A stretch of 64,000 bases of DNA from assembly GCF_018977255.1 (NCBI RefSeq), contig NW_024704742.1, forward strand, positions 79,176,001-79,240,000. The letters run 5' to 3'. The DNA is from Callorhinchus milii. Taxonomy: Eukaryota. The translations under genes and the position numbers were made by a program. Shown one piece after another: positions 218 through 60,123 of the stretch. The notes under the pieces are model-generated. The model was not told the DNA's origin. It did not search any database and saw nothing but the letters and a program-made list of their open reading frames with translations. The number at the start of each line of letters is the position of its first letter. The stretch's first letter is position 1.

Positions 218-543
218 GGAGTCCTGCAGCTCAGTGGTTAGAGCACTCGCTTTGCAAGCGAGAGACCTGAGTTCAATCCCAGGCAGGGCGAAACCTTGGG
301 CAAGTTTCCTTACTCCACACGCCTAATAATAATCCCTCCAAAACCAAAAACAATAATAAAAATTGGTCATTTTCAATCTACGACTGTTTGTGGGACATTG
401 CTGTGCGCAATTGGCTGCCGCGTTCGCCCACAAATATACAGTCAATTCACTTTACAGTGTGTTCTGTGAAGCGCTTTGGGACGTCCTCCCGACGTGAAAA
501 GCGCTATATCAAATGCAAGGATTATTATTATTATTATTATTAT
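218..543 (+). mobile_element. Young tRNA-derived SINE, full length (L2-type tail)
   Basis: A-box-like CAGCTCAGTGG and B-box-like GAGTTCAATCCC, anticodon-like arm CTCGC-TTTGCAA-GCGAG, L2-like tail GGGACGTCCTCCCGACGTGAAAAGCGCT, ends in (TTA)n. Near-identical to the copies at 38048, 48753, 54353 and 56369. Confidence 0.95.
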
Positions 544-3622: not shown

Positions 3623-5529
3623 CAACAAGCCAAAGTTGCAATGGATAGGTTGGTCCCAACAGAACATGGATGTTAAAAATTGTTCATGTCACACGGCCTT
3701 TCACTCCATTGATTATTGCCTTCCTGCATGCACATTGAAAGGACCACTGGAGCAAAGATGGGAATGAGTAAATTCAGGAGTTATACAGGGAACAATACAT
3801 TGTTTTCCCAGTTCTCCCAGTGAGGCTCATGTTTGTCCTGAGGGCCAAGAAGAGCAGAGCCCAGTGTCATTCAGATTCACTAGGTTTATATCGTCAAGAT
3901 TATTTCTCCTTGAGGCTCCCTGATCCAGAACAGTATCAGGAGCTCCAGTGTGATTTTCACACCATGATTCATACTGCATATGAGGCAGCAAAACACAAAG
4001 AAATTCACTGCCAAACCTGCAGTATAAATTCGATATTGGAGACTGTATAATCAATATCTATTCGCTATCTGTTCTTTCCATTCCAGATCACCTTATCGTG
4101 ACCTTGGCTTTTCCTTATTTCTATGATCACAAGATTTTCTGGAGTCCTGCTTAACCATATCATTTCAATCAGTTAAACATGCATGTGCGACTTACATGTC
4201 ACCAGTCAATAGCACTGGCCTAGTTGTTAACTTTACAAATAAACAATTGCTTCATTTTAAGCCTTGCAAAAAGTAGCAAAAAATGCTTCAAGTCTACTGC
4301 AGCCTCTTAGTGATTGCTGTGAAGTTATAGAGATTTCACTAATACTCTCTTAAAGTGACCTGCTTAAACACCAAGCTCACCACAGTCCAGAACCAAAGTT
4401 GTCTCTCCCAGCCCTGCAGACTCCACATGGACTGTCTCCACTGTCTCTTTGTTTCAGTGCTTGATTAAAAAATGCAGTACCTCTCTCTTCACTACGTAAT
4501 ATAAGATCAGAGAGAAAATAAATAATCGGGTCACAAATTACGTCACACATTTATATCCTTACATTGGGCTATATTTACACAAATCTATTTGTCTTGCTGA
4601 TTCTAAAGTACATACGGTAATGTTTCAAAATAAAAGCCTCTGATAACCGCTCGCTATGTTGTGTTCAGCTCAATCCACATTTGCAAAACAATATCTTAAG
4701 AGCTAAAATTAACTCTGAAACAAAGCACAGGGGCAGTTTTGTTTATGAGGGCTGTGTAATTTGATAATGTTTGTTGGACGTTTCACCTTATTGGCTGCTT
4801 CCCAAATCCTTCACACACTCAAATATTATGAAGCACCCTCTGAGAATTATCACAAATTACTCCCTGAAAAAGCCAAATACTCCCTCAACACATGGTATAC
4901 ATTTTAAAAGTTGTTACTTTTCTAATGTGTCCTTCCCCTCCATTGAGTTTAAAACTATTAAAAATCATCCCTATTGACTTTACATGGATTCTCTGGTTAT
5001 ATTATAAACACAGTAATCATTCTGAAACTGCAGACTTAGAGATAACTTGCTCTGTTTTATTTTTGTAACAAAAGATGAGTCAACAGCAAATGCTCAATCC
5101 TTTCAGGCTAAGTACAAGATAGCTAAAAAGCTGTAGATAATGAATATAGTGTGGGAACATTTGCTATATTTATCTAAAAAGATTTGCCACAAAATATAGA
5201 GTCAATTCACTTTCCAGTACATTCTGTGATGCGCTTTATATAATGTCTTGAAGAAATGATAAGGCGCTATATCTAATACATGAATTATTAATATCAAAGT
5301 GAATATCTGGAATTCCCTCTTTCAATCCCTCTGTCTCACCCTCTCTTGCCTTATCTATCTTTAAATCCCACTTTACCATCAACCTCTTCAACCGTGACTA
5401 CGGTCACTTCTCCCTAGCTTGGTGTCCAATCCGGCCACTAAACAGCGCTCCAAGACATTGTCCTGTGTGAAGGCTGCTATATAAATGCAAGTTGCTATTG
5501 CTATTATTGTATTTGATGTAGCTCGCCAA

Positions 5530-6590: not shown

Positions 6591-8049
6591 ATCTGTCAGA
6601 CTCAGTAACATACACATAATACTTCACTGTGGACACTGTTAAAGTATTTAATAATACTTCATATTATTTTAATAGTTCTTACATAATTAGAAAAGTAGTG
6701 AAGCAGGGCACAATGGTTGCATTTTGGTTACAAAGTGCAAAAAAAATCAAAGGTTCACTCGCAAAATCTAACCATAAATCAGCATTTTATTATAACCAGC
6801 AAAAAGAAGTGATGACTAGTATAAAAAGGGGTGACATTTATATAATTAGTGTTCCATTACCATGTGGAGGAAGCTTTGACTTCATTACTGCTGCCTACAT
6901 TTGTCTTATCAAAGAGTTTAGCATTCTCATTGCAGTGCAGAATGGAAGGACTGCATGAGAGTTTTTATCCGCAGCCAGACATCAACAGAAGTGAAATGTC
7001 CAGCCATATAACAATACAATCAGAGTTAAACTGTTGCATTGAATAATAATAATTCTTGCATTTGATTATAGCACCTTACCACATGATTGAGATGTCTCAA
7101 AGTGCTTCACAGTGAAGTGAATTGGCTATATTTTGTGGGAGAAAAGCAGCAGCCAATTGCGCAGAGCAGTGTGCTACAAACAGTAGGGGATTTTATATAA
7201 AAATATGAATTATATAAAAATATATTTACAAAATTATATAGAAATATATTTTAAAATATGTAAAAATATGATTGCCATATTTTTCAAAATACAGTTTCAA
7301 GAGAGGAAAACATTCACGGTAATCACATTCCAATTCATCTTAAAGTTTTTTCTCAAAAACTAACTCGTTGTACCTTCAGTCAACTCCATTCCACCCATCT
7401 CCTTCACATTTCCCACCCTGCTTGAACAGCCACTCGGACTCCCACTCAATTTCCAAAATTCCAGTTGGAGTTGCTTGAAATGCACAATCTAAGTGCAAGT
7501 TATTGTTAGAAAAAATATTTCCCTGATCACAACTTTCTGGAACCATGCAATGGTTACATTTGGTACAGAGTCTTTCACCTCAGCAAGATGTCCCAAAGCA
7601 CTTCACTATAAAGTGAGTGACTGTGTTTTGTGGGCAAACACCACCTTGTGCAACTATTTTATTAAATATTAATTGCATGCATTTATACAGCAATTCTTTT
7701 TATAGTAAATTACCAGAGCGAGAAGAAAATGGAAATTGCAGTACGAATCTTGATTGATTCAACATCAACAACAATCATTTGCAAAGGCACCTGAATTCCT
7801 CATGCCAGCTGGAGTTGGGGGGTTCCGCGCTGTTTATTCCCCCCCACCCTCCCCCAAACACAACAACCAAACATGCATAGCAGTACAGTTAACTCCCCAT
7901 TGCTCAGCAGAATTGGCACAGAATAATGATCAAAACTAGAGCACACCATATTCTGCACAATAACATTTTTCATTCGCTTCATATCTGTCTCTACGACATT
8001 GCTGTGAGAAAATTAGCTACCGCTTTCTCCTACAAAAACACAGTTACAG

Positions 8050-8232
8050 TCCCCAAGCCTTAGCCCTTACCAACTTGTGTCAATTACTCACCAGAATTAG
8101 GTAAGCAGGGTGCATTCCTCTATGGAGAGAGTGCGCATTCTATTCCCAGCCTGGGAATTTCCATATGTAGATGGCATACATAAGTGGAAGTCTCAGTCTG
8201 GTTTGGATACTCTTTAGCATGGTTATGAGCTG
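8050..8232 (+). mobile_element. 3' UTR fragment of the RTE-group-like LINE family
   Basis: GAATTAGGTAAGCAGGGTGCATTCC...CATTCTATTCC...GTGGAAGTCTCAGTCTGGTTTGGATACTC is shared with 17100, 18792, 26230 and 30420. Confidence 0.65.
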
Positions 8233-9582: not shown

Positions 9583-9904
9583 TGGACACAGGGAGCGGCG
9601 GCAGGACAGCGCGGGGAGGAGCCTGGGCCTATCTACACAGGTATTTAAGGTCGCGGCAGCAGGGAGTGCAGCCACACGGGGAGCGGCGGCAGGGAGTGCA
9701 CAGGGCTGTGGGGGCGGAGCGGGGGAACCGCTGACCTCATAGCTTAGTTTTCAGGAGTGTGTGCGCGCAAAAAAAAAACTCAGCCCCACCCCCAGAGCTC
9801 ACATCAGAGCCCACCATGGTCCTGTTGGGTTGGCTGCCCCAGCCCCAGCCTATGGGATAATGCCATCCACCTGACCGCTCGCTCCCGGTCCCCGCGTGTG
9901 CACT

Positions 9905-11008
9905 ATGGCTGCCACTTTGACCCTCACCCCCTCACCCCCTCCCTCCCTCCTCCCTCCTCTCTACCCCCAAACCCTCCCCCCTCTGCATCTCTCCCGCTCT
10001 GTCCTCCTCTCTCTCCGTCCCTCTTGCCTTCTATCCCCACTTGACCCTCCTACAACCTTCCTCTGCTCCAGCCTGGGAATTCTCCGCCGGGCTCACCGTG
10101 GCACTCGGCGTTGGCTGTCCAGCAGCAGCCACACCGACTGCCCCATTCCCCACCACACTCGCCAGCCACCCCGGACACAGACCCGGGGAGCCAACCTCTC
10201 CTCCCTTATCCCCATTTCCCCCACCCCTGCTTCACAACCTGGACCCCCCTCCCCTCCCACACACCCTTCTGTCAACCGCTCCCTCCACATCGGACTACAA
10301 AACGTCCGCTCCCTCTGTAACAAGGCCCTGGTCATCAACGATCTCATCCTTGATGAGAGCGTTGACATCATGGCCTTAACGGAAACCTGGCTCACCCCAG
10401 GCGACACCTTCCCCCTCACGGAGGCCACACCACCCGGCTACACCTCCCACCACATCCCTCGCCCCAACCGCCGTGGCGGTGGTGTTGCCCTTATCTCAAG
10501 GACACCACTTGCCCTATCCCCCTACTCCTCTGGCTCTTTCCCCTCTTTCGAGCACCTCACCCTCTCCCACCCCTCCTTCCTCTCACTCAAAATCCTCCTC
10601 CTCTACCGGCCCCCTAAAACCTCTCCCACCTTCATCTCCGAAATTTCGACACTTCTTACATCTCTCTGCCTCTGCTCCGATCGCCTCATCATCCTGGGCG
10701 ACTTTAACCTGCACTTCACCCCCTCCTGCTCCATCTCCTCAGACTTCTCTTCCCTGCTCTCCTCGCTCAACCTCTCCCTCCACATCAACTCCCCCACTCA
10801 CAGTCACGGCCACCCACTCGATTTGGTGATCACCCGGGGCCTCAGTGTCTCGGATGTCACTATCACCGACAAGGCCGTCTCCGACCACCACTTCATCTCC
10901 TTCACCACCTCCACCCCCTCCCCACCTCCACCAGACCCACCACCATCTTCTACCGCCCTGGAAGAAGTTACCCCCACAATCCCTAACCGCTGCCTTGGAG
11001 TCCTCTGA
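9905..11008 (+). pseudogene. L2 ORF N-terminus: apurinic-like endonuclease domain
   Basis: ATG in ACTATGG context; motifs LQNVRSL, ALTETWL, GGGVA, LYRPP, ILGDFN, PTH..GH.LDL, SDH. The frame is lost after about 10930. Confidence 0.92.
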
Positions 11009-11589
11009 ACTCCTCTCCCTCTGGCCTTCAACCCTCACTGACCCTCTTCTCCTCTCACCCTCCTCCACAACACCCTCTCCTCCACACTTGATACTCTTGC
11101 CCCCATCACCTCCCGTACTGTCTCCTACTCTCGCTCCTCCCCCTGGTTCACCACCCACCTCCGCTCACTGAAAGCCAGGTGCGGGCCGCTGAACGCACCT
11201 GTCAAATCTGGCCTAACGGTCCACCGACAAATCTGGCTGGACCTCCTCAAAATCTACCGCTCCACTCTAGCCTCGGCCAAGTCGTCCTTCTACTCCAGGA
11301 TAATCCTGGAGGCGAAGAACAACCCCAGGCTACTGTTTTCTACCACATCCCGACTCCTCCGTCCCCCCCGCCACCCCGCGCAGGTCATCTCCTCCAACCT
11401 TCACTGCGAGGAGATGCTGGATTTCCTTGAATCCAAATCAAGGAATTCGCTCCGCGGTCACTTCCCCTCCAACATCCACCCACTCCCCACCTCCTCCCTC
11501 CCACACTCCGACTCCTACCCATCCTTCCCTTCACACTTTCGTACCCGTTTCCCCACCCTCTGTCACCAAACTCATCCTATCCCTGAAAC

Positions 11590-13000
11590 CCACCACCTGC
11601 TCCCTTGACCCCATCCCCACTCCACTCCTTATCTCCCAGCTCCACCTCCTTGCCCCACATATCACAGACATCGTCAACCTGTCCCTCTCCTCTGGCTCTG
11701 TTCCCGTTCCCTTAAAACTGCCACCATCAATCCCAACTTGAAAAATCCCTCCCTTGATGCGTCGCAGCTATCAAGCTACCGGCCCATCTCCAACCTCCCC
11801 TTCCTCTCCAAGGTCTTGGAACGAGTTGTCGCCTCCCAACTGCACTCTTTCCTCTCCACCCATTCATTATTCAAACCCCTTCAGTCGGGTTTCCGTGCTG
11901 CCCATAGCACAGAAACTGCCCTGGTCAAGGTCACCAATGACATCCTGACCATCTGTGACCAGGGCTCCCTCTGCCTCCTCGACCTATCGGCAGCATTCGA
12001 TACGGTCGACCACGCTATTCTCCTCCACCACTTGTCCTCCCACCTCAACCTTCGAGGCCCTGTCCTTGAGTGGTTTTGGTCGTACCTCTCCCACTGTCTT
12101 CACTTTGTTTCCACGATGGTGACATCATCCAGACATGGGGTTAACTTCCACATGTATGCGATGACACCCAACTCTACCTTTCTTCCTCTACCCTCAACTC
12201 CACGACCACCGATGTCCTGACAGCTGCCTGTCCGACATCGAGTCCTGGACGAGAGACAACTTTCTTCAGCTCAACGTGCGCAAAACTGAGGCCCTCCTGA
12301 TTGGCTCACGTCAGCGCCTCCGCACCTCAGGCGCTGACACCATCAGCATCCAAGGCTGCACTCTCCACCTCTCAAAGCCAGTCAGGAACCTCGGGGTTCT
12401 GTTCGACCCTGAGCTGTCCTTTCTCCCTCATATCCGCACCACAACTGGCACCGCCTTCCATCACCTCCGGAATGTCGCCAGACTACGGCACTACCTCACC
12501 CCTCACGCTGCTGAAACCCTGGTCCACGCCTTTATCACCTCAAGGCTGGACTATGGGAACTCTCTCCTCGCCGGCCTTCCCGCCACCTCCCTCCACAAGC
12601 TGCAGGTCATTCAGAAATCTGTAGCTCGTGTACTGTCCCGCACCAGGCTTCGGGACCACATCACTCCCACCCTCGCTCGCCTCCACTGGCTCCCCATCCC
12701 CCAGAGGATCGAATTCAAGATCCTCATCCTCACTTACAAGGCCATTCACGGCCTTGCTCCCTCCTCCTCTCTGACCTACTATCCCGCTATTTACCTGCCC
12801 GTATCCTCCGTTCCTCTGGCTCCGGTCTGCTCCACATCCCCCGCCCCAACTGCCCTACCATCGGTGGCCGGGCCTTCAGCCTCTCAGCTCTGGAACTCTA
12901 TCCCCCAGTGCCTTCGCATTGCCTCATCCCTTTCCTTCTTCAAGGCCGGTCTCAAGACCTTTTTCTTTGACTATGCCTTCAGCTCCCTTCTCGACTCTCT
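11590..13000 (+). pseudogene. L2 reverse transcriptase and C-terminal region, frameshifted, with internal deletion
   Basis: YRPISNLPFLSKVLE, QSGFRAAHSTETAL, LDLSAAFDTVDH, broken YADD (TATGCGATGAC), SRLDYGN, LHWLP. Confidence 0.92.
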
Positions 13001-13147
13001 ACCCCCTCCTCGCTCCCTCCCTTTCCTCCTCTCACCCTGACCATTTCCCCCCTGCTCGGGTCCTGACCCAACTGTACAGCGCCTTGGGACGTCCTCCCAA
13101 CGTGAAAGGCGCTCTATAAATGGAATCTTGTTGTTGTTGTTTTCAAA

Positions 13148-17019: not shown

Positions 17020-17250
17020 GATGTTAGCTGGTTAAAGTAGCTGTATCCCAAAGCAAATTGGTCCCCAGGTCTTGGCTTTAACCTTCGCCTTTTACTCTTG
17101 GAAATTCGGTAAGCAGGGTGCATCCTTCCAGAGAGAGAGTACCCATTCCATTACATTCCAGACACAGGGACCTTTCTATGTGTAGGTGGCATATATATGT
17201 GGAACTCTGGTTTGGTTACTTTTAATCATAAGGATGGATTTCCGCATGTG
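17020..17250 (+). mobile_element. 3' UTR fragment of the RTE-group-like LINE family
   Basis: TTAGCTGGTTA...GGTAAGCAGGGTGC...CATTCCATT...GGATTTCCGCATGTG, collinear with the 30138-30640 copy. Confidence 0.65.
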
Positions 17251-18791: not shown

Positions 18792-18945
18792 TTTTGGTCA
18801 GCTGTGTGTCTGACACATGCATCAACCCATTACCATGCGTAAGAATATACCAACCAGACAGAGAGTTCCACATATGTAATGACACCACACATGGACATTT
18901 CCCTGTTTCTGGAATGGAATGTCCACTCTCTCTCACACGGGAGAC
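18792..18945 (-). mobile_element. 3' terminus of the RTE-group-like LINE family
   Basis: Minus strand ends ATGGGTTGATGCATGTGTCAGACACACAGCTGACCAAAA. Confidence 0.7.
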
Positions 18946-19217: not shown

Positions 19218-20762
19218 CTACAACAGCAACAAAATTACATTTGTATAGTGCCTTTCACATCAGTAGGATGTCCGAAGGTGCTAGACAGAGTTTTGGAAGC
19301 GAGCTGGGAGTTGGGATCAAGGAGGGTGCCGGGCAGGGGGAAAAAGGGGTGAAATCGAAACCACGGTCGAAGAGGAGATCTTGAGATGGGTCTTCAAGGA
19401 GGCAAGGGAGCAGGCGATGTGAAGGGACTACGGGATAGAGTTCCAGAGGGTGGGGACAGAGTGGCAGAAGGCCCGCCTGCCAATAGTGGGGTAAGTGAGG
19501 CAAGGGACGTGAAGCAGGCCAGAGCCTGCTGAGCAGAGGGAATGAGCAGGAGGGTAGGGGGGGTTAGGAGGTCGCAGATGTAGTGGGGTGCAAGACCATG
19601 AAGAACTTTGAAGGTGAGGACCAGAATCTTGAACTGTATCCTCTGTGTGATGGGAAGCCAGTGGAGTCGGGCGAGGATGGGATTGATAGGGTCTTGGAGC
19701 CTCGTGCGGCAGAGGACACAGGCTGCAGAGTTCCAGATGATCTGCAGCCTATGGACTGAGGAGTTGGGAAGGACGACAAGCAATGAGGTTGCATTGTCAA
19801 GCCTCGATGTAATGAAAGCACATATGAGGGTTTTGGCAGCCTGCGGTGTGAGACAGAAGTAGAGTCGGGCAATGTTATGGAGGTGGGGGAAAGCAGAGCG
19901 GGTCATGCTGCAGGTGTGGTAAAAAAAGGAAAGTTGAGTGTCAAACAAGACCCTAAGGTTCCAGACTGGCTTAGCAAGGTGAAGTGTGCAATCATGGATG
20001 GTGATGCTGTCAGTGCCTGAGGTGTGGAGGCGCTGATGGGAGCCAATCTGGAGAACCTCGGTCTTATTGACGTTCAACTGAAGAAAATTAGCTCTCATCC
20101 AGGACTTGATGTCTGACAGACATTCTGTCAGCACTGCAGTGGTCCTGGAGTCAAGGGTGGAGGCACAGATGTATAATTGGGTGTCATCCGCATACATGTG
20201 GAAGTTGACCCCATGTCCGAGGATGATGTCACCAAGAGGGAGCATATAGATATTGAAGAGGAGGGGACCAAGGACAGAGTCCTGAAGAATGCTACACGAA
20301 ACAGTGCGGGAGCTAGAGGAGAAACCATTTGTTGAGATGAAGTGGAGGTGGTGTGAAAGGTACGATCTGACCCAGTCAAGGACAGAGTCGTGAAGGTTGA
20401 GGTGAGAGGAGAGGCGGTGGATGAGGATAGAGATGTCTACGGTGTCTAAGGCATCAGAGAGGTCAAGGAGAACGAGGAGACAAAGGGATCCCTGGTCGCA
20501 GATGGACAGAATATCATTTGTCACTTTGACCAGGGCTGTTTCTGTGCTGTAGGCGGCACAGAAACCCGATTGGGGGCATTTGTGAAGGGAGTGGCTGGAG
20601 AGGAAGGAGCGAAGCTGGGAAGCAACAACTTGTTCCAGGACAATTGGAGATGAAAGGGAGGTTGGAGATGGGGCAGTAGTTTGGGAGTGCAGATGGGTCC
20701 AGGGAGGGTTTTTTAAGAATAGGAGTGATGACAGCAGTTTTAACAGTACTAGTGGACAGGGA
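19218..20762 (-). mobile_element. 5'-truncated L2 LINE with 376-aa open RT/C-terminal frame (19394-20524)
   Basis: LLDLSDALDTVD, QDSVLGPLLF, MYADDTQLY, SRLDN, LHWLP; L2 tail at 19218-19285. Confidence 0.95.
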
Positions 20763-21359
20763 GCTGATTTCTGGATCTAATCAGAAGCAGCCAATAAAGA
20801 CTGAACAAATACTTAAAACTTTTGTTTAATATCCTCGATTCAGAGATCTTTTTTGAATATTTATGCATGTAGAAAAATTCCCCATTGTATCTAAGATTTG
20901 TAATTTACACTTAGAGGTCAGAAGAACATGCACCAGCTAGAGGGCTAAAGATGCTGTGGATTACTCCCAGCACCACTTTGAATCTCTCCTTTAACTCCAA
21001 ACACGTGCAGGTTCCTCAGAACTGAGAAAGATAAATCATAAACTACTTTGTGATGTGAAGTTGTGTCTGTTGGGAGCTGGACTGAAGTTGCCTGAATTCA
21101 TTTTCCTCGTGCCCTTTTAACACTTCTCAAAGTAGAGACAATCCCGGTCACTAATCCATTTAACCTAAATTTGAAACCATTGCCCCGAGAGTGTTGCTGC
21201 CAAAGACAAGTTTTTAACATCTACTTTTTGTACTAAACGTCAGAGAGCTACTTGCTTTTGCCTTTCTGGGACCAGCAACTCATCAAGTGAGAACTTGGAA
21301 ATAGCCCCTCAACAAAATCATTGACGCATGATTTATACTTTCCTGGGTATATTACACAA

Positions 21360-26229: not shown

Positions 26230-26396
26230 ATTTTTGGTCAGCCGTGTGTCTGACATGTGCCAAAACCCATCCCCATGCTTAAGAGTATCCAATCCAAGCT
26301 CAGATTTCCACCTACACATGTAAATCCCAGAGGTAGATTGTTGGAATGGAATACGCATTCTCTCCCTAAGGGGACGTTTCCTGCTTACCTAATTCA
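26230..26396 (-). mobile_element. 3' terminus of the RTE-group-like LINE family
   Basis: Minus strand: GAATTAGGTAAGCAGG...ATGGGTTTTGGCACATGTCAGACACACGGCTGACCAAAAA. Confidence 0.7.
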
Positions 26397-30137: not shown

Positions 30138-30990
30138 ATTTTGGTCTCTGGGTATCTGATACATGCAGAAAACCATCATCTTGGGCAAGTTTCCTTACTC
30201 CACACGGCTGATAATAATCCCTCAAGAGAAAAAACAATAATAAAATTGGTCACTTCAAACCACGACTGTTTGTGGGATGCTGCTGTGTGCAATTGGCTGC
30301 CGCGCTTGCTCGTAAATATACAGTCAATTCACTTTATAGTATATTCTGTGAAGCGCTTTGAGATGTCAGAAGATATGAAAAAGCATTATACTAAATGCAA
30401 GGATTATTTTATTAATATGTTGCTTAGTACTATCTGAACTAAACAGAATTCCAAGCATCCCATCTTTGCACGGATGTACCCAAAATATTTATTGGAATGG
30501 AATGTGCTATCTTCCTGGCGGGACCCATCTGCTTACCTAATTCCGGAGATTATTAGGCACAGATTGGTGAGAACCAAGGCTTGGGTTCCCCAGAGTGTGT
30601 GTTGGGGGTACTGCTGGAGTCTAACCAGCTAAAAACACATAGCATTATCTGGCACGCTGACTCTCTGCTTGTCCAGCTGGGTCGACCCTACCCAATAGAG
30701 CATTGACTTGCAGGGATACAGGAGCTGAGCGGGAAGAGTCCCTGCCCCAATGACTGGTCTGCCTATGAGCCAAGCTGGCTGTGCTATCATCAGCAATACC
30801 CTCGAGTACTGTTGACCCACATGACTCAGGAACTGGATGGCCAAGACCATCATAGGGTTGGGCATAATTCCGACATTCTGTTTTGAAAACATTTCACCTT
30901 GGAGCCAGTTCAGCTCCGAGGAGACCTGTTTACCTGGAGGAAGCTCTTCCGCTGCATCTCCAGAAGCTGATATTCATAAAGGATAACTGC
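30138..30990 (-). mobile_element. 3' region of the RTE-group-like LINE family (probable ORF end + 3' UTR), split by a SINE
   Basis: Terminus 30138-30180 and UTR 30420-30640 match the family. The upstream open frame (ORF 30629-30892) is tentatively the ORF2 C-terminus, and the upstream limit is uncertain. Confidence 0.55.
30181..30415 (+). mobile_element. 5'-truncated tRNA SINE nested in the element above
   Basis: Starts TTGGGCAAGTTTCCTTACTCCACAC, ends AAATGCAAGGATTATT. Confidence 0.9.
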
Positions 30991-38047: not shown

Positions 38048-38368
38048 GGAGTCCTGTAGCTCAGTGGTTAGAGCACTCGCTTTGCAAGTGAGAGACCTGA
38101 GTTCAATTCCAGGCAGGGCGAAACCTTGGGCAAGTTTCCTTACTCCACACGCCTAATAATAATCCCTCCAAAACTAAAAACAATAATTAAATTGGTCATT
38201 TTCAATCTACGACTGTTTGTGGGACATTGCTGTGCGCAATTGGCTGCCGCGTTCGCCCACAAATATACAGTCAATTCACTTTACAGTGTGTTCTGTGAAG
38301 CGCTTTGGGACGTCCTCCCGACGTGAAAAGCGCTATATCAAATGCAAGGATTATTATTATTATTATTA
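38048..38368 (+). mobile_element. Young tRNA SINE, full length
   Basis: Near-identical to 218-543. Confidence 0.95.
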
Positions 38369-41503: not shown

Positions 41504-42845
41504 TAACAACAACAACAAATTACATTTATAGAGTGCCTTTCATGTTGGGATCACATCCCAAGGTGCTGGACAGTCAGGTGTCGGGACCCAAGCATGGGGG
41601 AGGGGTGGGATAGGGGTGAGGGAAGGTAGAGAGGTGGGAGGGCGACTGAAAGCACGATCGAAGAGAAGGATCTTGAGACTGGCCTTAAAGGAAGCAAGGG
41701 AGGAAGAGAGGCAAAGGGATGGAGTTCCAGAGTGTGGGGGCAGAGAATCTGAAAGCTTGGCCACTGATGGTAGGATGGGTCGGACGGGAGACATGGAGCA
41801 GGCCGTTGGGCGTGGGCAGGTTGGTAGGGAATCAGCAGGTCAGAGTGGTAGGAGGGGGCAAGTTCATGGATGGCCTTGAAAGTGAGGACGAGGATCTTGA
41901 ATTCGATCCTCTGAGGGATGGGGAGCCAGTGGAGTCGGTCGAGGGGGGTAGTGATGGGATCGTTGAGCCTGGTGCATGAGAGTACACGAGCTGCAGAGTT
42001 TTGCATGATCTGTAGCTTGTGAAGGGAAGAGTTGGGAAGACCAGTGAGGAGGGAGTTTCCGTAATCGAGCCTTAATGTGACAAATGCATGGGTGAGGGTC
42101 TCGGTCTCTTGAGGGGTGAGGCAGTTGCGGAGTTTGGCAATTTCGCGGAGATGGTGGAAGGCAGAGCCGGTCATGGCATGGATGTGGGGGAGAAAGAACA
42201 GTTCAGGGTCAAACAAGACACCCAGGTTCCTGATTGACTTTGTGAGGTTGAGTGTGCAGCCATGGAGGCTGATGCTGCCAATCCCCGAGGTGCGGAGGTA
42301 CTGGCGTTAACCAATAAGGAGGGCCTCGGTTTTGCTGACATTGAGTTGGAGAAAGTTACCTCTCATCCAGGACTTGATGTCGGACAGGCAGTCTGTCAGG
42401 ACGCCAGTAGTCCTGGAGTTGAGGGTGGAGACAGAGAGATAGAGTTGGGTGTCATCCGCATACATGTGGAAATTTATCCATGTCTGCGGATGATGTCACC
42501 AAGGGGAAGCATGTAGAGGGTGAAGAGAAGGGTGAGGACAGATCCCTGAGGAACACTGCACGAGATAGTGCGGGGACTGGAGGAGAAGCCGTTTGCTGTG
42601 ACGAAGTGGAGGCAGTGTGAAAGGTAGGACCTGAACCAGTCAAGGACAGAACCTTGAAGGTTGAGGTGGGAGAAGTGGCGGTGGAGGAGAATTGAATGGT
42701 CAACAGTGTCAAAGATGGCAGAGAGGTCAAGGAGGACGAGGAGGCAGAGGGAGCCCTGGTCACACATGGTCAGGATGTCGTCTGTGACCTTGATCAGAGC
42801 AGTTTCCATGCTGTGGGCAGCACGGAAACCCGATTGGAGGGGCTC
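41504..42845 (-). mobile_element. 5'-truncated L2 LINE (RT + C-terminus)
   Basis: QSGFRAAHSMETAL, LLDLSAIFDTVDH, VPQGSVL, LRLDYGN, LHWLP; (CAA)n tail. Confidence 0.95.
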
Positions 42846-44149
42846 TACTTTTCCATACCTCCTCATACTTTCCCAGTGAATTCCTGGTGGAGACAGCATG
42901 ATCCGAGCCAACCCTGATGGAGTCTGAACACTGCGCCATCTTCAGAAGATGGTTTCAGCAGCATATCAATTCTTGTCACCTCAATGTGAATACAGTGGTA
43001 CAAATCAATTCGGACTCTGCTCAAAGTCCCTGATTCACCCAAGAACATGTAGGGGATATTTTTAGACCATTATTAAAGAGTCCATTACGCAAGAACATTT
43101 CCATTTCATAGAACTGTCTTTCAGCCCCCAGCCAAAGTAATTAGAAATTGGAAATGGGAATTTGAGCTCACTGTTCTTAGTCACTTTACTGCCAGAGGGG
43201 ATGTTGCTTGAAGCTGCATAAAACTGGCCATAGAAATAGAAAAATGTGAGTTTTTTCAGCTAAAATATGATCCTAATTTAGAGCAATAATATCTGAGCCC
43301 TCAATGAATACACGGATATTCAAATGGTATTAACATCAAAATATGATCAAAACCTGTGTGCTGTTTCAAAATAACAAGTGGTCACTACTGAACACTGCGG
43401 TGCATCTACCTGAACAATATCTTGTGAGGAAAGCTGTGGGAGATTCTCTGCCTCATCCTGGGACTCTGACCTTGAGACTCCCTGAGTAGACACTGAACAA
43501 TGTATTAAGCTGATATTTCTGCAGTAAAATACGAACGACTAAGATTTTGTATTCTGAGATAAAAGGAGATTATTTGTGATGCAAAGGAAACACTTGTCTC
43601 CTCTGGCCATGATTACAATGTCAATGAAAGTCTCGTAAAGTATGGCAAATATCAAGACTAATGGCTCTTACGTAATATCTGTAGTCTGTAGCTATGATAT
43701 TAGGAAACAGATGAACTGGCTGTTATTTCTTGATACTCAGCAGTACCACCGCACTTGACATATCAGAAATAGTATATCCAAAAATACTTTCAATGTCACT
43801 GTTGTAGAAATTAAGGTTGACAGATGTTATATATGCACTAATGCTTTTACTATTAATCTTAAGTGGAAAACCAAAAAAGGATTTTCTTTATTGAAACATA
43901 ATGTCTTTGCATTTTGAAAATAAGGGGCTAAGAAATTTGCAAACTGGCTCCATTTAATGGCAACTGATTAATAATGATTGAGCCTGATGCCTGAACTACT
44001 CATTGTAATACTACATTTATAGTGGAGGGTATGCTGCTATTTCTGCACCACGTACCACCACAAGATGATGCTCATTATTCACCTTGTTGGGCTGCTCTGA
44101 CATGGACCTGGAATAGTTGGTTTTAGGAGCAGACGCTGATATATATATG

Positions 44150-48752: not shown

Positions 48753-49075
48753 ATAATAATATAATAATAATAATCCTTGCATTTGATATAGCGCTTTTCA
48801 CGTCGGGAGGACGTCCCAAAGCGCTTCACAGAACACACTGTAAAGTGAATTGACTGTATATTTGTGGGCGAACACGGCAGCCAATTGCACACAGCAATGT
48901 CCCACAAACAGTCGTAGATTGAAAATGACCAATTTATTATTGTTTTTTGTTTTGGAGGGATTATTATTAGGCGTGTGGAGTAAGGAAACTTGCCCAAGGT
49001 TTCGCTCTGCCTGGAATTGAACTCAGGTCTCTCGCTTGCAAAGCGAGTGCTCTAACCACTGAGCTACAGGACTCC
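48753..49075 (-). mobile_element. Young tRNA SINE, full length
   Basis: Reverse complement near-identical to 218-543. Confidence 0.95.
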
Positions 49076-54352: not shown

Positions 54353-54673
54353 GGAGTCCTGTAGCTCAGTGGTTAGAGCACTCGCTTTGCAAGCGAGAGA
54401 CCTGAGTTCAATTCCAGGCAGGGCGAAACCTTGGGCAAGTTTCCTTACTCCACACGCCTAATAATAATCCCTCCAAAAAAACAAAACAATAATAAATTGG
54501 TCATTTTCAATCTACGACTGTTTGTGGGACATTGCTGTGCGCAATTGGCTGCCGCGTTCGCCCACAAATATACAGTCAATTCACTTTACAGTGTGTCCTG
54601 TGAAGCGCTTTGGGACGTCCTCCCGACGTGAAAAGCGCTATATCAAATGCAAGGATTATTATTATTATTATTA
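54353..54673 (+). mobile_element. Young tRNA SINE, full length
   Basis: Near-identical to 218-543. Confidence 0.95.
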
Positions 54674-54734: not shown

Positions 54735-56300
54735 ACCACATTCATCTAGCAGCAGCCTTGACCTCATTATCTCTTCTGATCAAATGGAATTATCACATCT
54801 CCATTCCTAAAGTTGCCATCAAGAAGCTTGGATTCCTCCTTTGTGTTAAACCTTTATTTTCCTTACAACTCTTCACTTTGGTCACCTTCATCTTGCTTTC
54901 TACAATGCCAACCTCTCTGCTCTCCAAAGCTCCACCATCCACCAAGTGCAATTGATTCAGAACTCCGCCGAACATATCCTCACATGGATCAAACTACATA
55001 CAACAACAAAAACAACTTGACTTACATAGAGTCCTCCACGCAGGGCAGTGTCTCAGAGGGCGTAAGAGTGGTGGAGTCTGACTATGAGCTGGGTGGAGGG
55101 GGGAGGTGGATGTAAGCACAGTTGAAGAGGAAAGATTTCAGGCAGGACCTGAAAGAAAGAGGGGAGAGAGGGGGCAAGGTGGAGGAATTGAGGGAGATTT
55201 ATTTCAGAGTTTTGGGGCGTAGTGGCTGAAAACACAACCTCCGACAGTGGGGCGGAGGGTGAGAGGGACGAGCAGGAGGCCGGTGCCAGTTGAGTGGAGG
55301 TGCCGGGTGGTGGATTGGGAAGTGAGGAGGTCAGAGAGGTAGGGAGGTGCCAGGGAATGAATGGATTTGAACACAAGTGTGAGTAGCTTGAAGTTGATCC
55401 TTTCAGTGATGGGGTGCCAGTGGAGCCTGGCCAGAACTGGTGAGATGGGGGTATGGAGTTTGGTCCAGGTCAGTATGTGAGTGGCAGAGGTCTGAATGAG
55501 CTGGATCTTGTGAATGGTGGCGTTGTGGAGACCGGTGAGGAGTGCGTTGGAGTAATCTAAGTGGGAAGTGATAAAAAGCATGCACAAGGGTTTCAGCTGC
55601 ATTTGGGGTAAGGTACAGTCGGAGGCGGGCAATGTGGCAGAGGTGGAAAAAGGTGGGGTGGGGAGGAGGTATGTTTGAGGGTCGAACTGGATGCCTGGGT
55701 TGCACACTGGTTCAGAGAACCCAGATAGATTGAATAGTTTAGATCCGCAGGAGCGAAGACGTTGACGGGAACCAAGGAATATGGCTTCCACCTTGTCCAT
55801 ATTCAGCTGCAGGATTTTTACACTCATCCAGGCCTTATGTCTGCTAGACAGGCTGATAGAACATCAGCGGGTATATATGTACCCCCACACCCCAATCCAT
55901 GCCAGCCACCACTGGTCCCTGTCATAAAATGGAACAAATTCAAGATCCGCACACTCACCTAAAAATTAAAGCATTCCCTAGCACCTACCTCTGTAACCTG
56001 ATCACCCTCTTTTCACCCGCTTTGCTCAGTCAGCTCCGGCATTCTGCACATCTCTCATTCCCTCCACTCCACCATTGGTGGTCATACTTTCAGCCACTAT
56101 GCCTCAAACCTGGAACTCTCTGCCTCATCCTCAGCCATGTCCGCTCTTTGTTCTTCAAATGACATCTGAAGACTTTCCTCTCCGAGGCTTGTGCGGTGAC
56201 CTCCCCTTTCTCTCCAACTCAATATCAAGCTCCATCGCAGTTAAGCACTCCAAGATGTTATCCCGTGTGAAGAGCGGTATATACAAATGCATGTTGTTGT
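54735..56300. mobile_element. Old + strand L2 (54735-54998 and 55880-56300) split by a minus-strand L2 (54999-55855)
   Basis: The outer pieces read continuously (QLIQNSAEHILTWIKLH, then the LHW/FKI region); the inner piece has ORF 55204-55827 with TSHLDYSN and LHWHP. Confidence 0.85.
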
Positions 56301-56368
56301 TTTAGATTCCACTCCTACGACAAATTTTTACCCCTAAATTCAACTGCATCGGCTACTCGCTCATATGG

Positions 56369-56690
56369 AATAATAATAATAATAATAATCCTTGCATTTG
56401 ATATAGCGCTTTTCACGTCGGGAGGACGTCCCAAAGCGCTTCACAGAACACACTGTAAAGTCAATTGACTGTATATTTGTGGGCGAACGCGGCAGCCAAT
56501 TGTGCACAGCAATGTCCCACAAACAGTCGTAGATTGAAAATGACCAATTTATTATTGTTTTTGGTTTTGGAGGGATTATTATTAGGCGTGTGGAGTAAGG
56601 AAACTTGCCCAAGGTTCTGCTCTGCCTGGAATTGAACTCAGGTCTCTCGCTTGCAAAGCGAGTGCTCTAACCACTGAGCTACAGGACTCC
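56369..56690 (-). mobile_element. Young tRNA SINE, full length
   Basis: Reverse complement near-identical to 54353-54673. Confidence 0.95.
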
Positions 56691-56883
56691 AATGTTGTTG
56701 ATGCAGATTAACTGCTACATGTTTCTATATAACATTCATTTCTGATCAATTGTATTTTGTAAAGTGCTGCAACAGGCTTATTTTGACTTAAAAGCTGCTA
56801 TATAAACATACGCGTGCTTTATTATTGCACGACTGCTTGTTAGAATTGCAATTCAAGATGAAGCAAGCTTCTTCCATTATTTA

Positions 56884-58490
56884 TTTTTTTGGTCAGACGT
56901 GTGTCTGACACATGCAGAAACCCATCATGTGATAACTGTGTAGTGATACACGTGTAGTGACTACCCAACCAACCACCTTAAGAGCCACTGAAATCAATGA
57001 GATCCATCTGTAGTTCTCGGTCTCACTTGGGGCACATTTATTGTGGACAGAAGCCACAACTGGTCTCTGGAGGTTGTGCCTCAGAGAGAGTCCTATTGAC
57101 CAGCGCTAAGCGGGCTGCTCAACGCTGAGTTGGAGTTTCTTGACTTGGATCTGTAAGATCGTCACTATTCACTGTCCCCCTCCTCAGAGCAGCTTTTAAG
57201 AACTCAGCATTAGTGCTGCCTGCACCTGCTACCTTGCCATTAACAAGCTGTCACAGTGCAGAGACCACCTCCTCTCATATATTCCATATATCCGGCTTTT
57301 AATCTATCTCACGTCTCCTGCCACCTGTCCCACCCTCAGCGCAGTTATATCTCAACTACAGCCTATTGTGCCAGACCCCATTTCTGCATTATACTCCCTT
57401 CAGATCCCAAGGATACCCTTTTGGCTCTGTTGTACAACACAGAATTTGTCCAACATTTGTACAAACCCAAAGGGGCCCTTCCAGTTATGGCCGATGACCA
57501 ACTTCAGCCAGTGAAAGAAAGATTTGGGATTGTTCTTGTGCATTGTTCTTGTGTAGTTCTGCCTTCTTATGGACTGATGCAATCAATTGATCCCATTTCA
57601 TTTCTCTAATAACCTTCCTGGCTTTGTGCCATGTCTGGTTGTACTTTGCCTTTGCTTCAATTTTAGCTTGCTCTGAGGAAGCTTCCAGAACCCCTTTAAT
57701 GGCCTTCTGCTTTTGCCTAATAGCTCTCCTTCCCTTTGTGGTTACCCTGACAGGGTCCCGCTTGAAGGATGAGTACCTTGCAGGCTATAGATTCAATTTC
57801 TTTACGACCTCAGTTGCAGAAGCAGGAAAATCTTTTGGCTGCATCATCAATCATCAAGTCCCCAATGTCAATTCTTGCACAGAATTGGTTACTGGCTTCA
57901 TGGTCAGCAATACTCTTTGGCACAATCACTCGTAGCATATTGAACCCTAACCTGACAGTCACAGGGTTAACTCTCTGCCCCAGAAGTTCAAAAGCTGCTT
58001 TCTTCACCCAAAAGTGACTGGCCATTGGTCAGAGATTTCCCAGAGATGCCGAACAACTCAATAGGAGATCACAAGATGTGCCAAACATTAACCACCATGG
58101 GATTGATTGTTGTTTCGTTTTGTTCTCTGACGATGCCATGTAATTGGTGAACCTTAGATTGGAAGCAGAGAGAACCCAGGAGGAGATTTTGCTCCACCTT
58201 TGAAGTTCTGGTTTTCACATGTTCCAATTTCCCATAAGAAGCAACAGATAGTCAGAAAACTGTTGTACAAGTCCATCTAATGAGGTACCAACGGCCTTAA
58301 GGATCTCCTCCAGTAGTATATCGAGGGTTAAGCTGGGCTACCAGCTTGAGCCCCAATATAGATCACATAGGAAAGTGACACAAGAGGAGCTACTTAAGAA
58401 CATAAGAGTTTGACATTTGACCCATAAGCTCCATCTGTCAGGCTTTTTAAATCCAACTTCCATTTATTAAAGCTATTAAGCAGTCCAACA
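56884..58490 (-). mobile_element. Decayed non-L2/non-CR1 LINE (RTE-group-like ORF2: APE + linker + RT start) fused to the family 3' terminus
   Basis: Manual minus-strand translation gives, in canonical order, LWVK...FLCDLY, LLMGNWNM, WEISDQWPV, KNNPKSFFHWLK, EEVVSAL*QLVNGKVAGAGSTNAEFLK and ENYRWISLISVALKVV. Terminus GTCAGACACACGTCTGACC-A7. Confidence 0.85.
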
Positions 58491-58708
58491 CAACCCATGT
58501 GAAGAATGCTGCATAAACACTGGTTGTCATTGTTGTTGACATAGCTCAACTCTCAAGCCAACTTCAACTTTGTGGTAAACTAAAATAAATGCTCAGAAAG
58601 AAAATGTTTACAAGAAATTGCACTGAAACGTGTAATGTTGCCCAGGCACTTACTTCATCATGTGTCCAGTTTCAAACACAAAACACCAACAGTGACTCCA
58701 CTTTTCGT

Positions 58709-59027
58709 GGAGTCCTGTAGTTCAACGGTTAGACCACTCGCCTCTCAAGCGAGAGACCTGGGTTTGATTGCCAGCAGGGCAAAACCGCGGGCAAGTTTCC
58801 TTACTCCACACACTTAATACTAATCCCTCAAGAAAAAAAAACAATAATAAATTGGTCACTTCAATCCACAACTGTTTGTGGGACACTGTTGTGCGCAATT
58901 TCGCTGCCGCATTTCGCCCTTAAATATACAGTCAATTCACTTTGCAGTATATTCTGTGAAGCACTTTGAGACGTCTAGAAAATGTGAAAAGCGCAATATC
59001 AAATGCAAGGATTATTATTACTATTAC
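58709..59027 (+). mobile_element. tRNA SINE, short form, older subfamily
   Basis: Head GGAGTCCTGTAGTTCAACGG, tail GAGACGTCTAGAAAATGTGAAAAGCGC. Confidence 0.92.
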
Positions 59028-59750
59028 TTTACAGTATATCCTTTTAAGTGCTGTGAGATGTCCTCCCCACATGAAAGATGCTGTACCAATGTAAGAATTA
59101 TTATTTTAGTTCTGCGTTCACCAAGTGTTCATATGAATCTTAATAAAAATAACGCAGTTTATAATGTTATCAACAACAACAAGATTACATTTGTATAACG
59201 CCCTTCACATCGGGAGGACATCAATAGATCTAATCCTCGATATGCAATAACAAATGGTCATTGAAGCACCTATTCCAGCCCCATTCCTTTATCAATAATA
59301 ATACATTGACCAGCTTCAAAAAATTGTACCTCTTCTAGTTTAAAGGGTAGAAGTCAAAATGTTACAGTTTTTTTATATTAAAGAACACGTTCCTGAATCA
59401 CTTTATTACCGTGGCTACAGATCTTACAATATCGTTTATTGTTCAAAATCTGTCTGGCATCGAACACGAATTGGACAACAATGGTAACATCTTATTTGCT
59501 AAAAATATTATAGTGGAGTTTGATAGTTGTGATAAGTACAGTGTTGTACAGCCTTTAGTACTGCAGCAGTACAAAAATCAAACACAATCTCTTGTTAGGA
59601 TATTTTAATTTATTGGAGTATCACTCAAGTTGACAGTCTTAACTATGTTATCATAAAGAGAAAGAAAGATTTCAGCATGACCAAATCAAGGTAAACCGGA
59701 TGATGGGCCACATTGCTAAATGAGTTCAGTTTGAATGCCCATACAACTGT

Positions 59751-60123
59751 GCACTCCTGTAGCTTAGTAGTTAGAGCAATTGCCTCTCAAGCGAGAGACC
59801 TGGGTTTGATTCCCAGCAGCGTGAAACGTTAGGCAAGTTTCATTACTCTACACGCCTCTGTTTACAATAGCAGCAAGTAGGAATCCTAAGTTAGTCGATT
59901 GGCGGATCGCTTTTCCAGGGGTAATAACTCCTTCAAAAAAAAAAATAATAATTTCGTCATTCAATCCACGACTGTTTGTGGGACACTGCTGTGTGGTCTT
60001 GGCTGCCACATTTTGCCCACAAAATATATAGTCAATTCACTTTACAGTATATTCTGTGAGCGCTTTGAGACATTTTGAAACCATGATAAGGCGCTATATC
60101 AAGTGCAAGAATTATTATTATTA
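59751..60123 (+). mobile_element. tRNA SINE, long form, full length
   Basis: Same head and tail plus an extra central segment CTCTGTTTACAATAGCAGCAAGTAGG... Confidence 0.92.

Follow-up and report, generated by a model that had tools for sequence, protein, structure and literature searches.

The minus-strand sequence at positions 58308-56877 of the window (the whole 64-kb stretch of Callorhinchus milii DNA analysed here) is a decayed, non-functional copy of an APE-type non-LTR (LINE) retrotransposon. It is very probably the inert relic of one insertion by an old and abundant LINE family that belongs to a deep clade of elements with long ORF2s. The family appears to be neither L2/CR1 nor RTE proper in lineage, and its clade is distinct from both the L2/CR1-like LINEs of the window and the ~1000-aa RTE-like elements. 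The window copy itself is an ordinary genomic fossil.

Extent and anatomy of the window copy

Pfam searches of eight open pieces of the window copy returned nothing relevant (three weak, unrelated linker matches only), and the test of the ORF2 reading therefore had to use relatives. A profile of 1279 positions was built from 45 distant full-length database relatives, none of them from the Callorhinchus milii genome, and was searched against 6244 six-frame pieces that included window positions 55000-60000. Five matches were found in that interval, all on the minus strand and collinear with the profile (Table 1), with no other match there; two of the five reach significance (E 1.9e-4 and 2.7e-9), and the remaining three, though weak, keep the order. 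Over the entire 64-kb window, the same profile matched the two other LINEs (9875-13037 and 19397-20776) and nothing else near the window copy. Additionally, P0162, a single-frame read-through of the better copy L021 (1010 residues, with 24 stops shown as X), aligned with window 58081-56944 by tblastn in four stretches and three frames at E-values of 1.5e-10 to 6e-38, the latter for the entire stretch in frame -3 from residue 32 onward. Further upstream, the piece at 58215-58337 matches an endonuclease piece of copy L025 (20/29 residues identical, 69%; BLASTP E 9e-12), beginning at piece residue 12, which corresponds to ~58304. Tblastn of the relatives P0003 and P0004 on the window copy gave no match at E<=1e-3; recognising the copy took the profile and the family read-through.

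The peptide strings quoted in the first-pass annotation of this DNA are all present on the minus strand where it had placed them (three minus frames, 56500-59000), and the ORF2 observation is largely borne out, its most 5' piece and its 3' limit excepted. The string LWVK...FLCDLY (58338-58463), which had been taken as part of ORF2, has no significant match (E 0.6, aligning elsewhere); since homology to seven of 19 other loci also begins only at 58304-58308 in the DNA comparison, 58338-58463 is flank rather than ORF2. The 3' limit of 56941 was set too early, as the element continues past a 9-base junction into a 3' terminus and A-rich tail at 56927-56877. A 72-aa frame at 57810-58028 that had been overlooked lies on the ORF2 path. 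The "acidic insertion" after AEFLK, which had been likened to fungal or other non-vertebrate LINEs, is the normal family spacer after the FLK motif and is present in other copies; in the relatives P0003 and P0004, similarly long stretches occupy the site of this spacer.

Table 1. Coordinates of the window copy and its parts, matches of the relatives' profile, and further fragments of the family in the 64-kb window.
Feature	Position	Strand	Basis
Whole element as traceable	56877..58308	-	DNA homology to other copies from 58308 to 56937 and from 56927 to 56879; tail read directly
Endonuclease (APE) piece, GDxN-type motif LLLLMGNWNM	58215..58308	-	BLASTP to L025; profile positions 230-260, E 0.069
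Endonuclease domain end, SDH-type motif WEISDQWPV	58016..58081	-	tblastn of P0162 from residue 9, frame -1
Post-endonuclease stretch, 72-aa open frame	57810..58013 (frame 57810-58028)	-	tblastn of P0162 from residue 32, frame -3
Basic helical linker, endonuclease to RT	57485..57784	-	profile 417-493, E 1.9e-4; tblastn of P0162
Pre-RT region (KNNPKSFFHWLK ... ILGI*REYNAEM)	57294..57582	-	tblastn of P0162, frames -2/-3; profile 483-507, E 4.5, weak
RT motif 0 region (NGKVAGAGSTNAEFLK) and family spacer	57068..57250	-	tblastn of P0162 293-351, 54% identity; profile 587-617, E 5.6, weak
RT motif 1 (ENYRWISLISVALKVV)	56944..57105	-	profile 641-687, E 2.7e-9; tblastn of P0162
Internal deletion junction, 9 bases	56928..56936	-	window 56937 = L021 sense 2665; window 56927 = L021 sense 4467
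Conserved 3' terminus of the family	56891..56927	-	88% identity to L021 3' end; 90-96% to many loci; alignment of five 3' ends
A-rich tail (AAAAAAATAAATAA)	56877..56890	-	read directly; A runs also terminate other copies
Profile match	58337-58218	-	positions 230-260, E 0.069
Profile match	57784-57488	-	positions 417-493, E 1.9e-4
Profile match	57582-57403	-	positions 483-507, E 4.5
Profile match	57250-57122	-	positions 587-617, E 5.6
Profile match	57105-56896	-	positions 641-687, E 2.7e-9
Further family fragments	8049-8227; 17024-17250; 18792-18928; 26231-26395; 30421-30927		3' part of element

The copy is truncated at its 5' end at ~58308, within the endonuclease domain, and it is also interrupted internally. 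Homology stops at 56937-56943 in seven of the 19 other loci, and the other family copies run ~1.85 kb further 3' than this break. Window 57120-56937 aligns with L021 sense 2472-2665 at 73% identity, and window 56927-56879 with 4467-4515 at 88%, so that ~1.8 kb is missing; the gap opens immediately behind RT motif 1 and closes ~50 nt short of the 3' end. The missing part comprises the rest of the RT, the thumb, and the CCHC region; only motifs 0-1 of the RT are retained (profile E 2.7e-9). Of 40 scored matches (from 507 candidates), the window copy alone crosses the deletion junction, and the deletion is private to it as far as sampled. An amplified non-autonomous subfamily carrying this deletion was considered and rejected, since the junction occurs in no other scored match. 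The tblastn stretches and the three minus frames together show a minimum of six frame changes, and stops are numerous. The best candidate for a target-site duplication, with 9 of 12 bases matching between 58317-58306 and 56881-56870, is no more than suggestive.

Following established LINE biology, the copy would have been made by target-primed reverse transcription that stopped early, hence the 5' truncation inside the endonuclease domain. The ~1.8 kb would have been lost later by internal deletion, and frame changes and stops would have accrued as the copy decayed, leaving a sequence that presumably can neither move nor encode protein.

The family in the genome and its ORF2

When the genome that contains the window (991.5 Mb in 1762 contigs) was searched at the DNA level, at least 55 matches to the window copy were obtained on many contigs (40 scored of 335 first-look candidates). 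These matches are 66-84% identical, which identifies 58308-56877 as a member of an old repeat family with dispersed copies. The copies are 66-85% identical among themselves in the body, and the part between mid-endonuclease and the 3' end measures 3 kb or more. Of 11,564 candidates, 150 were scored; none of these is intact, and their longest open frame is 252 aa. The five 3' ends that were aligned share a terminus followed by A runs, and over the last ~50 nt the identity between copies rises to 90-96%, against 70-80% in their bodies. L053 and L054, two loci picked by this conserved terminus out of at least 25 such matches, are 190-300-bp copies that retain the 3' end only and carry A tails. 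Within the 64-kb window there are six fragments of the family including the window copy, and the five others all derive from the 3' part of the element (Table 1); many other rows of the fragment listing were SINEs nested in the reference copies and were excluded. Dispersed, mostly 5'-truncated copies with a common 3' end, a pattern by which LINEs are recognised, are thus what the genome contains. The suggestion in the first-pass annotation of a rare clade does not agree with the abundance of the family (335 and 507 first-look candidates, six fragments in the window).

Two ideas concerning the 3' end were not supported. A SINE partner of the conserved terminus was sought, and both loci examined (of at least 25) proved to be plain 5'-truncated LINE ends; none of the window's tRNA-like SINE heads adjoins a tail fragment of the family. 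In the window copy by itself, GTCAGAC...GTCTGAC could pass for a conserved 3' hairpin, and the five 3' ends that were folded gave z values of -1.47 to +1.17 and differing structures.

The other copies reveal the organisation of the family's ORF2, in which a linker joins an apurinic-type endonuclease to an RT with FADD and a CCHC knuckle lies near the C-terminus. Motifs recognised in the family translations are GGDWNL, ETSDHWPV, NGKAAGADGISAEFLK, DNYRGISL, GVRQGCPLSPTLFDVFIN, LLFADDIVLL, KCGIMV, and a C-terminal CPSCGQEDG knuckle. The SDH-type motif reads ETSDHWPV in L021, DVSDHWPV in the relative P0004, and SDHWPV in the clade consensus. Taken together, the copies span profile positions 180-1214 of 1279; the N-terminal part and the first ~45 endonuclease residues were not recovered from the profile-covered copies. 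No full-length copy was seen among the copies examined, nor any ORF1 in them.

Individual domains were detected to differing degrees. Pfam RVT_1 exceeds its cut-off of 29.6 bits in three of 22 ORF pieces (36.0, 38.7, and 37.7 bits), with three more pieces under the cut-off, and it is likewise above the cut-off in the read-through P0162 (48.6 bits). The relatives' profile locates the endonuclease in L025 (positions 180-268 and 277-335; scores 50 and 43) and in L021 (299-403; score 45), while Exo_endo_phos_2 of Pfam matches one of the 22 ORF pieces weakly (E 0.18). An apurinic-type endonuclease upstream of the RT is thus recognised by the relatives' profile and by the motifs GDWN and SDHWPV. DUF6451 has no match at E<=0.1 in P0162 or in nine relatives. 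At the CCHC knuckle, zf-RVT matches three of the nine relatives (E 0.02-0.045) as well as P0298 (E 0.0017), in all cases under the cut-off.

Database relatives and phylogenetic placement

With a 221-aa RT frame as query, 14 proteins (576-1917 aa, 25-37% identical to it) were retrieved by a word-based search, and nine of them combine an endonuclease with an RT. An exhaustive phmmer search with P0162 as query against 1.84 billion representatives gave 10,327 matches at E<=1e-3 and 309 at E<=1e-30 (best 2.1e-63), with identities of at most 40% among the matches listed; the top matches are 1250-1450-aa ORFs on contigs of 4.3-6 kb. Five long ORF2s also came first in the word-based search with P0162 (E 5e-58 to 8e-26). 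PF20049 (DUF6451) is present in 23 of the 57 rows of that search, mostly in proteins of ~1000 aa (E ~1e-10 to 1e-17), and the ranking of these lower matches depends on shared words and database content.

The taxonomic information attached to these proteins is sparse. None of 19 clusters looked up gave an organism name for the nearest proteins, and the ESM Atlas returned generic endonuclease/RT clusters only, without taxa. Among the kin of P0003, four of the 120 rows listed carry organism labels (Pylaiella, Ectocarpus twice, and Batrachochytrium), such that the only labels in the relatives' clade point to brown algae and to one chytrid. No vertebrate-labelled row appeared in these protein searches, which used libraries whose coverage of vertebrate transposon proteins was not gauged. 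The likeness to non-vertebrate elements noted earlier thus stands insofar as the nearest database proteins are non-vertebrate or unlabelled; given the ungauged library coverage, such relatives are not evidence of a non-vertebrate origin, and nothing found points to horizontal transfer. The family's motif strings did not occur in the literature searched, and the matches listed in a literature search for Proto2/RTE-X in cartilaginous fishes included nothing relevant. The endonuclease of the relative P0122 has weak similarity to the L1 endonuclease and APE1 (E 1.8e-4 to 4e-3), and its matches at E<=10 include none named as an R1 or TRAS1 endonuclease.

The long ORF2s from metagenomes (1250-1450 aa; kin in Pylaiella, Ectocarpus, and Batrachochytrium) have the same domain order as the family and share with it the motifs GDWN, SDHWPV, NYRGISL, GVRQGCPLSP, FADD, KCG(I/V)MV, and CPxC...H....C. 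The family differs from them in forming a separate deep branch, all copies of which, as far as seen, are dead. The ~1000-aa proteins, which we take to be RTE-like from their size and layout, resemble the family in having an APE-type endonuclease and an RT in one ORF and N-Y-R-G-I in RT motif 1. They lie on 3.2-3.6-kb contigs, most of them carry DUF6451, and their endonuclease starts at residues 27-46; of three that were scanned, two (P0320 and P0337) have DUF6451 immediately behind the RT, whereas the family has no DUF6451 match and, unlike these proteins, a long C-terminal part with a CCHC knuckle. RTE proper is compact, its one ORF of ~1000 aa having the endonuclease at the start.

Trees were computed from 336 profile columns and are unrooted, with no labelled reference of any named LINE clade. 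They contain 29 database proteins, taken from 338 with RT coverage by means of a forced list and a greedy filter at <40% identity, together with 14 merged family-copy rows and two rows for the window's other LINEs. From 25 merged rows, seven family-copy rows filled to <45% and the opposite-strand rows of L022 and L026 were left out. The family rows are merged and gappy, being derived from decayed copies, and the row of the window copy, which fills 14% of the tree columns, was also left out, so that its family membership rests on DNA identity. With FastTree, the family is one branch (support 100) inside a clade with the long ORF2s (support 99). A quick IQ-TREE run with eight of the 14 family rows gave support of 100 for the family and 98 for its clade with the long ORF2s; the RTE-like rows fall outside this clade (in a tree without a labelled RTE reference), and the family takes part in a three-way split with other subclades, nested in none of them. 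The family stem measures 0.46 changes per column in the IQ-TREE run and 0.46-0.55 over the trees. A supported join of the long-ORF2 clade with the RTE-like rows is absent from both trees.

Identities in the RT core follow the same order. The L021 row is 40-42% identical to the long-ORF2 clade and 27-29% to the RTE-like proteins; for others the value is 24-26%, and it falls to 12-15% for the two remaining LINEs of the window. The latter (9875-13037, plus strand, and 19397-20776, minus strand) are APE-type elements of the same genome, like the family, and owe the designation L2/CR1 to the first-pass annotation; in both trees they occupy their own long branch (support 100), far from the family. 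The identification of a third LINE lineage in the window is borne out by this separate branch and the RT-core identity of 12-15%. Placement in RTE proper is not, as the family follows the profile of 1250-1450-aa ORF2s, it has a CCHC knuckle and no DUF6451 match, and the clade with support 98 contains no RTE-like rows. The N-Y-R-G-I motif behind that placement had some basis as an RTE lead, but it is common to the relatives' clade and the RTE-like proteins and does not discriminate between them.

Candidate lineages and significance

The family may belong to the wide RTE group in a long form of RTE-X or Proto2 type, an assignment that can be entertained only tentatively. N-Y-R-G-I is kept in the relatives' clade and in the RTE-like proteins, and the latter, at ~1000 aa, make up much of what follows the family's own clade in the word-limited search (23 of 57 rows with PF20049). 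The mean lengths given for Proto2 (5675 bp) and RTE-X (4937 bp), unlike that for RTE-BovB (3583 bp; PMC10294476), suit the relatives' 4.5-6-kb contigs in length, and RTE-X traces are recorded in vertebrates (PMC5753468, PMC9004415). However, no supported tree join links the clade with the RTE-like rows; DUF6451 was not found at E<=0.1 in P0162 or the nine relatives; and the next-best matches of P0162 hinge on shared words and database holdings. Membership in the L1 group (L1/Tx1-like) is unlikely. The endonuclease-RT-CCHC layout with its long C-terminal part is that of human LINE-1 ORF2p (8sxt, 8uw3, 8c8j), the family copies share the A-rich 3' tails of that element, and zf-RVT is weakly matched at the knuckle (three of nine relatives and P0298, all sub-cut-off). 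The relatives' clade profile matches human ORF2p over residues 6-823 (E 1.7e-81), and its endonuclease part reaches L1 endonuclease chains at ~1e-21, where the RTE-like profile finds none at E<=1e-5. Nevertheless, human L1 ORF2p is matched no better by the relatives' clade than by the RTE-like proteins, with profile scores of 277.8 versus 286.3 bits (201.8 versus 242.2 on the RT-only chain) and single-protein scores of 75-87 versus 95 bits, human L1 being the only anchor of this comparison.

We give little credence to the family being a LINE clade still without a name, or without a vertebrate record so far, and equally little to its being the vertebrate branch of a widespread unnamed clade of long endonuclease-RT-CCHC ORF2s. 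No protein among the 1.84 billion representatives exceeds ~42% RT-core identity, all 19 of the nearest clusters looked up are without names, the organism labels (4 of 120 listed rows) name nothing but brown algae and a chytrid, and the motif strings have no match in the literature searched. Set against this, the absence of vertebrate-labelled rows is a weak argument with libraries whose coverage of vertebrate transposon proteins was not gauged, and Repbase already holds 32 non-LTR clades, with traces of 10, including RTE-X, Vingi, and Tx1, in the human genome (PMC5753468). Were the unnamed-clade reading true, a further ancient LINE lineage, missing from clade lists, would have been active in an early jawed vertebrate. 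Least probable of all, and very doubtful indeed, is horizontal transfer of the family into this lineage from a non-vertebrate, which the first-pass annotation had raised as an ancient acquisition. The nearest labelled relatives of the family are non-vertebrate, and horizontal transfer is documented for the RTE clade, but the same source describes it as rare for vertebrate non-LTR elements outside RTE (PMC7140322). Its copies are dispersed and of old age, it forms a single deep branch with a long stem (0.46-0.55 changes per column) that is nested in no sampled non-vertebrate group, and the closest outside protein is ~40% identical (RT core at most ~42%).

Because the human genome has traces of 10 clades and vertebrates retain old relics of several rarer LINE clades, RTE-X traces among them (PMC9004415, PMC5753468), a further LINE lineage in this genome is to be expected and is not surprising. 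L2 and CR1 are described as dominant in one cartilaginous fish (PMC6817897). The window copy is inert, and the significance of the finding beyond repeat annotation is slight; what is added is that this genome contains an abundant LINE family of old age that is not of the L2/CR1 types and whose nearest relatives in very large protein libraries are unnamed. A clade name would sharpen the picture of the LINE lineages present in early jawed vertebrates. The conserved 3' terminus might, in addition, be a partner sequence for short non-autonomous elements.

Family members and other LINEs in the window

Together with five additional fragments, each from the 3' part of the element, the decayed LINE copy brings the family to six members within the 64 kb window. 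Over the final ~50 nt, copies of the family share 90-96% identity, whereas the bodies of the same copies are only 70-80% identical, and folding revealed no structure common to the family 3' ends. The RT core of this family is very distant from those of the other LINEs in the window (12-15% identity), which carry listed open frames of 377, 203 and 291 aa and of 460 aa, and which are probably the L2/CR1 elements named in the first-pass annotation. A further open frame of 219 aa may correspond to the C-terminus of an ORF2 of the L2/CR1 type.

Features of the window, with the basis of each call
Feature	Position	Strand	Basis
Family 3' terminus in the decayed copy	56891-56927	-	identity to copies at loci L053 (605-653) and L054 (597-642)
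Family fragment, 3' part	8049-8227	+	similarity to family copies
Family fragment, 3' part	17024-17250	+	same
Family fragment, 3' part	18792-18928	-	same
Family fragment, 3' part	26231-26395	-	same
Family fragment, 3' part	30421-30927	-	same
Other LINE, long open frames	9875-13037	+	matches endonuclease and RT parts of profile
Other LINE, long open frames	19397-20776	-	same
Weaker LINE traces	41554-42941	-	matches to profile
219-aa open frame	55204-55863	-	ORF listing
tRNA-like SINE head	221-290	+	ARAGORN
tRNA-like SINE head	38051-38120	+	ARAGORN
tRNA-like SINE head	54356-54425	+	ARAGORN
tRNA-like SINE head	49003-49072	-	ARAGORN
tRNA-like SINE head	56618-56687	-	ARAGORN
tRNA-like SINE head	58711-58782	+	ARAGORN

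SINEs and interrupted family copies

The tRNA-like sequences called in the window with ARAGORN (five tRNA-Ala-like and one tRNA-Glu-like) each form the head of a repeated SINE, ~310 bp long, whose copies share 84-96% identity, and two of the six flank the decayed LINE copy. Better family copies elsewhere in the genome are broken by younger repeat insertions (sense positions 1057-1472 of locus L021, ~2277-2583 of L025 and ~2580-2730 of L023); the inserted repeats are SINEs and one other repeat, both kinds being also present in the window.

A related protein with RNase H

Near the clade of the family lies P0014, a metagenome ORF2-like protein of 1917 aa, in which the endonuclease (344-547) is followed by RNase H (648-793) and then by the RT (1195-1466). 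The placement of RNase H between endonuclease and RT appears to be an unusual arrangement.
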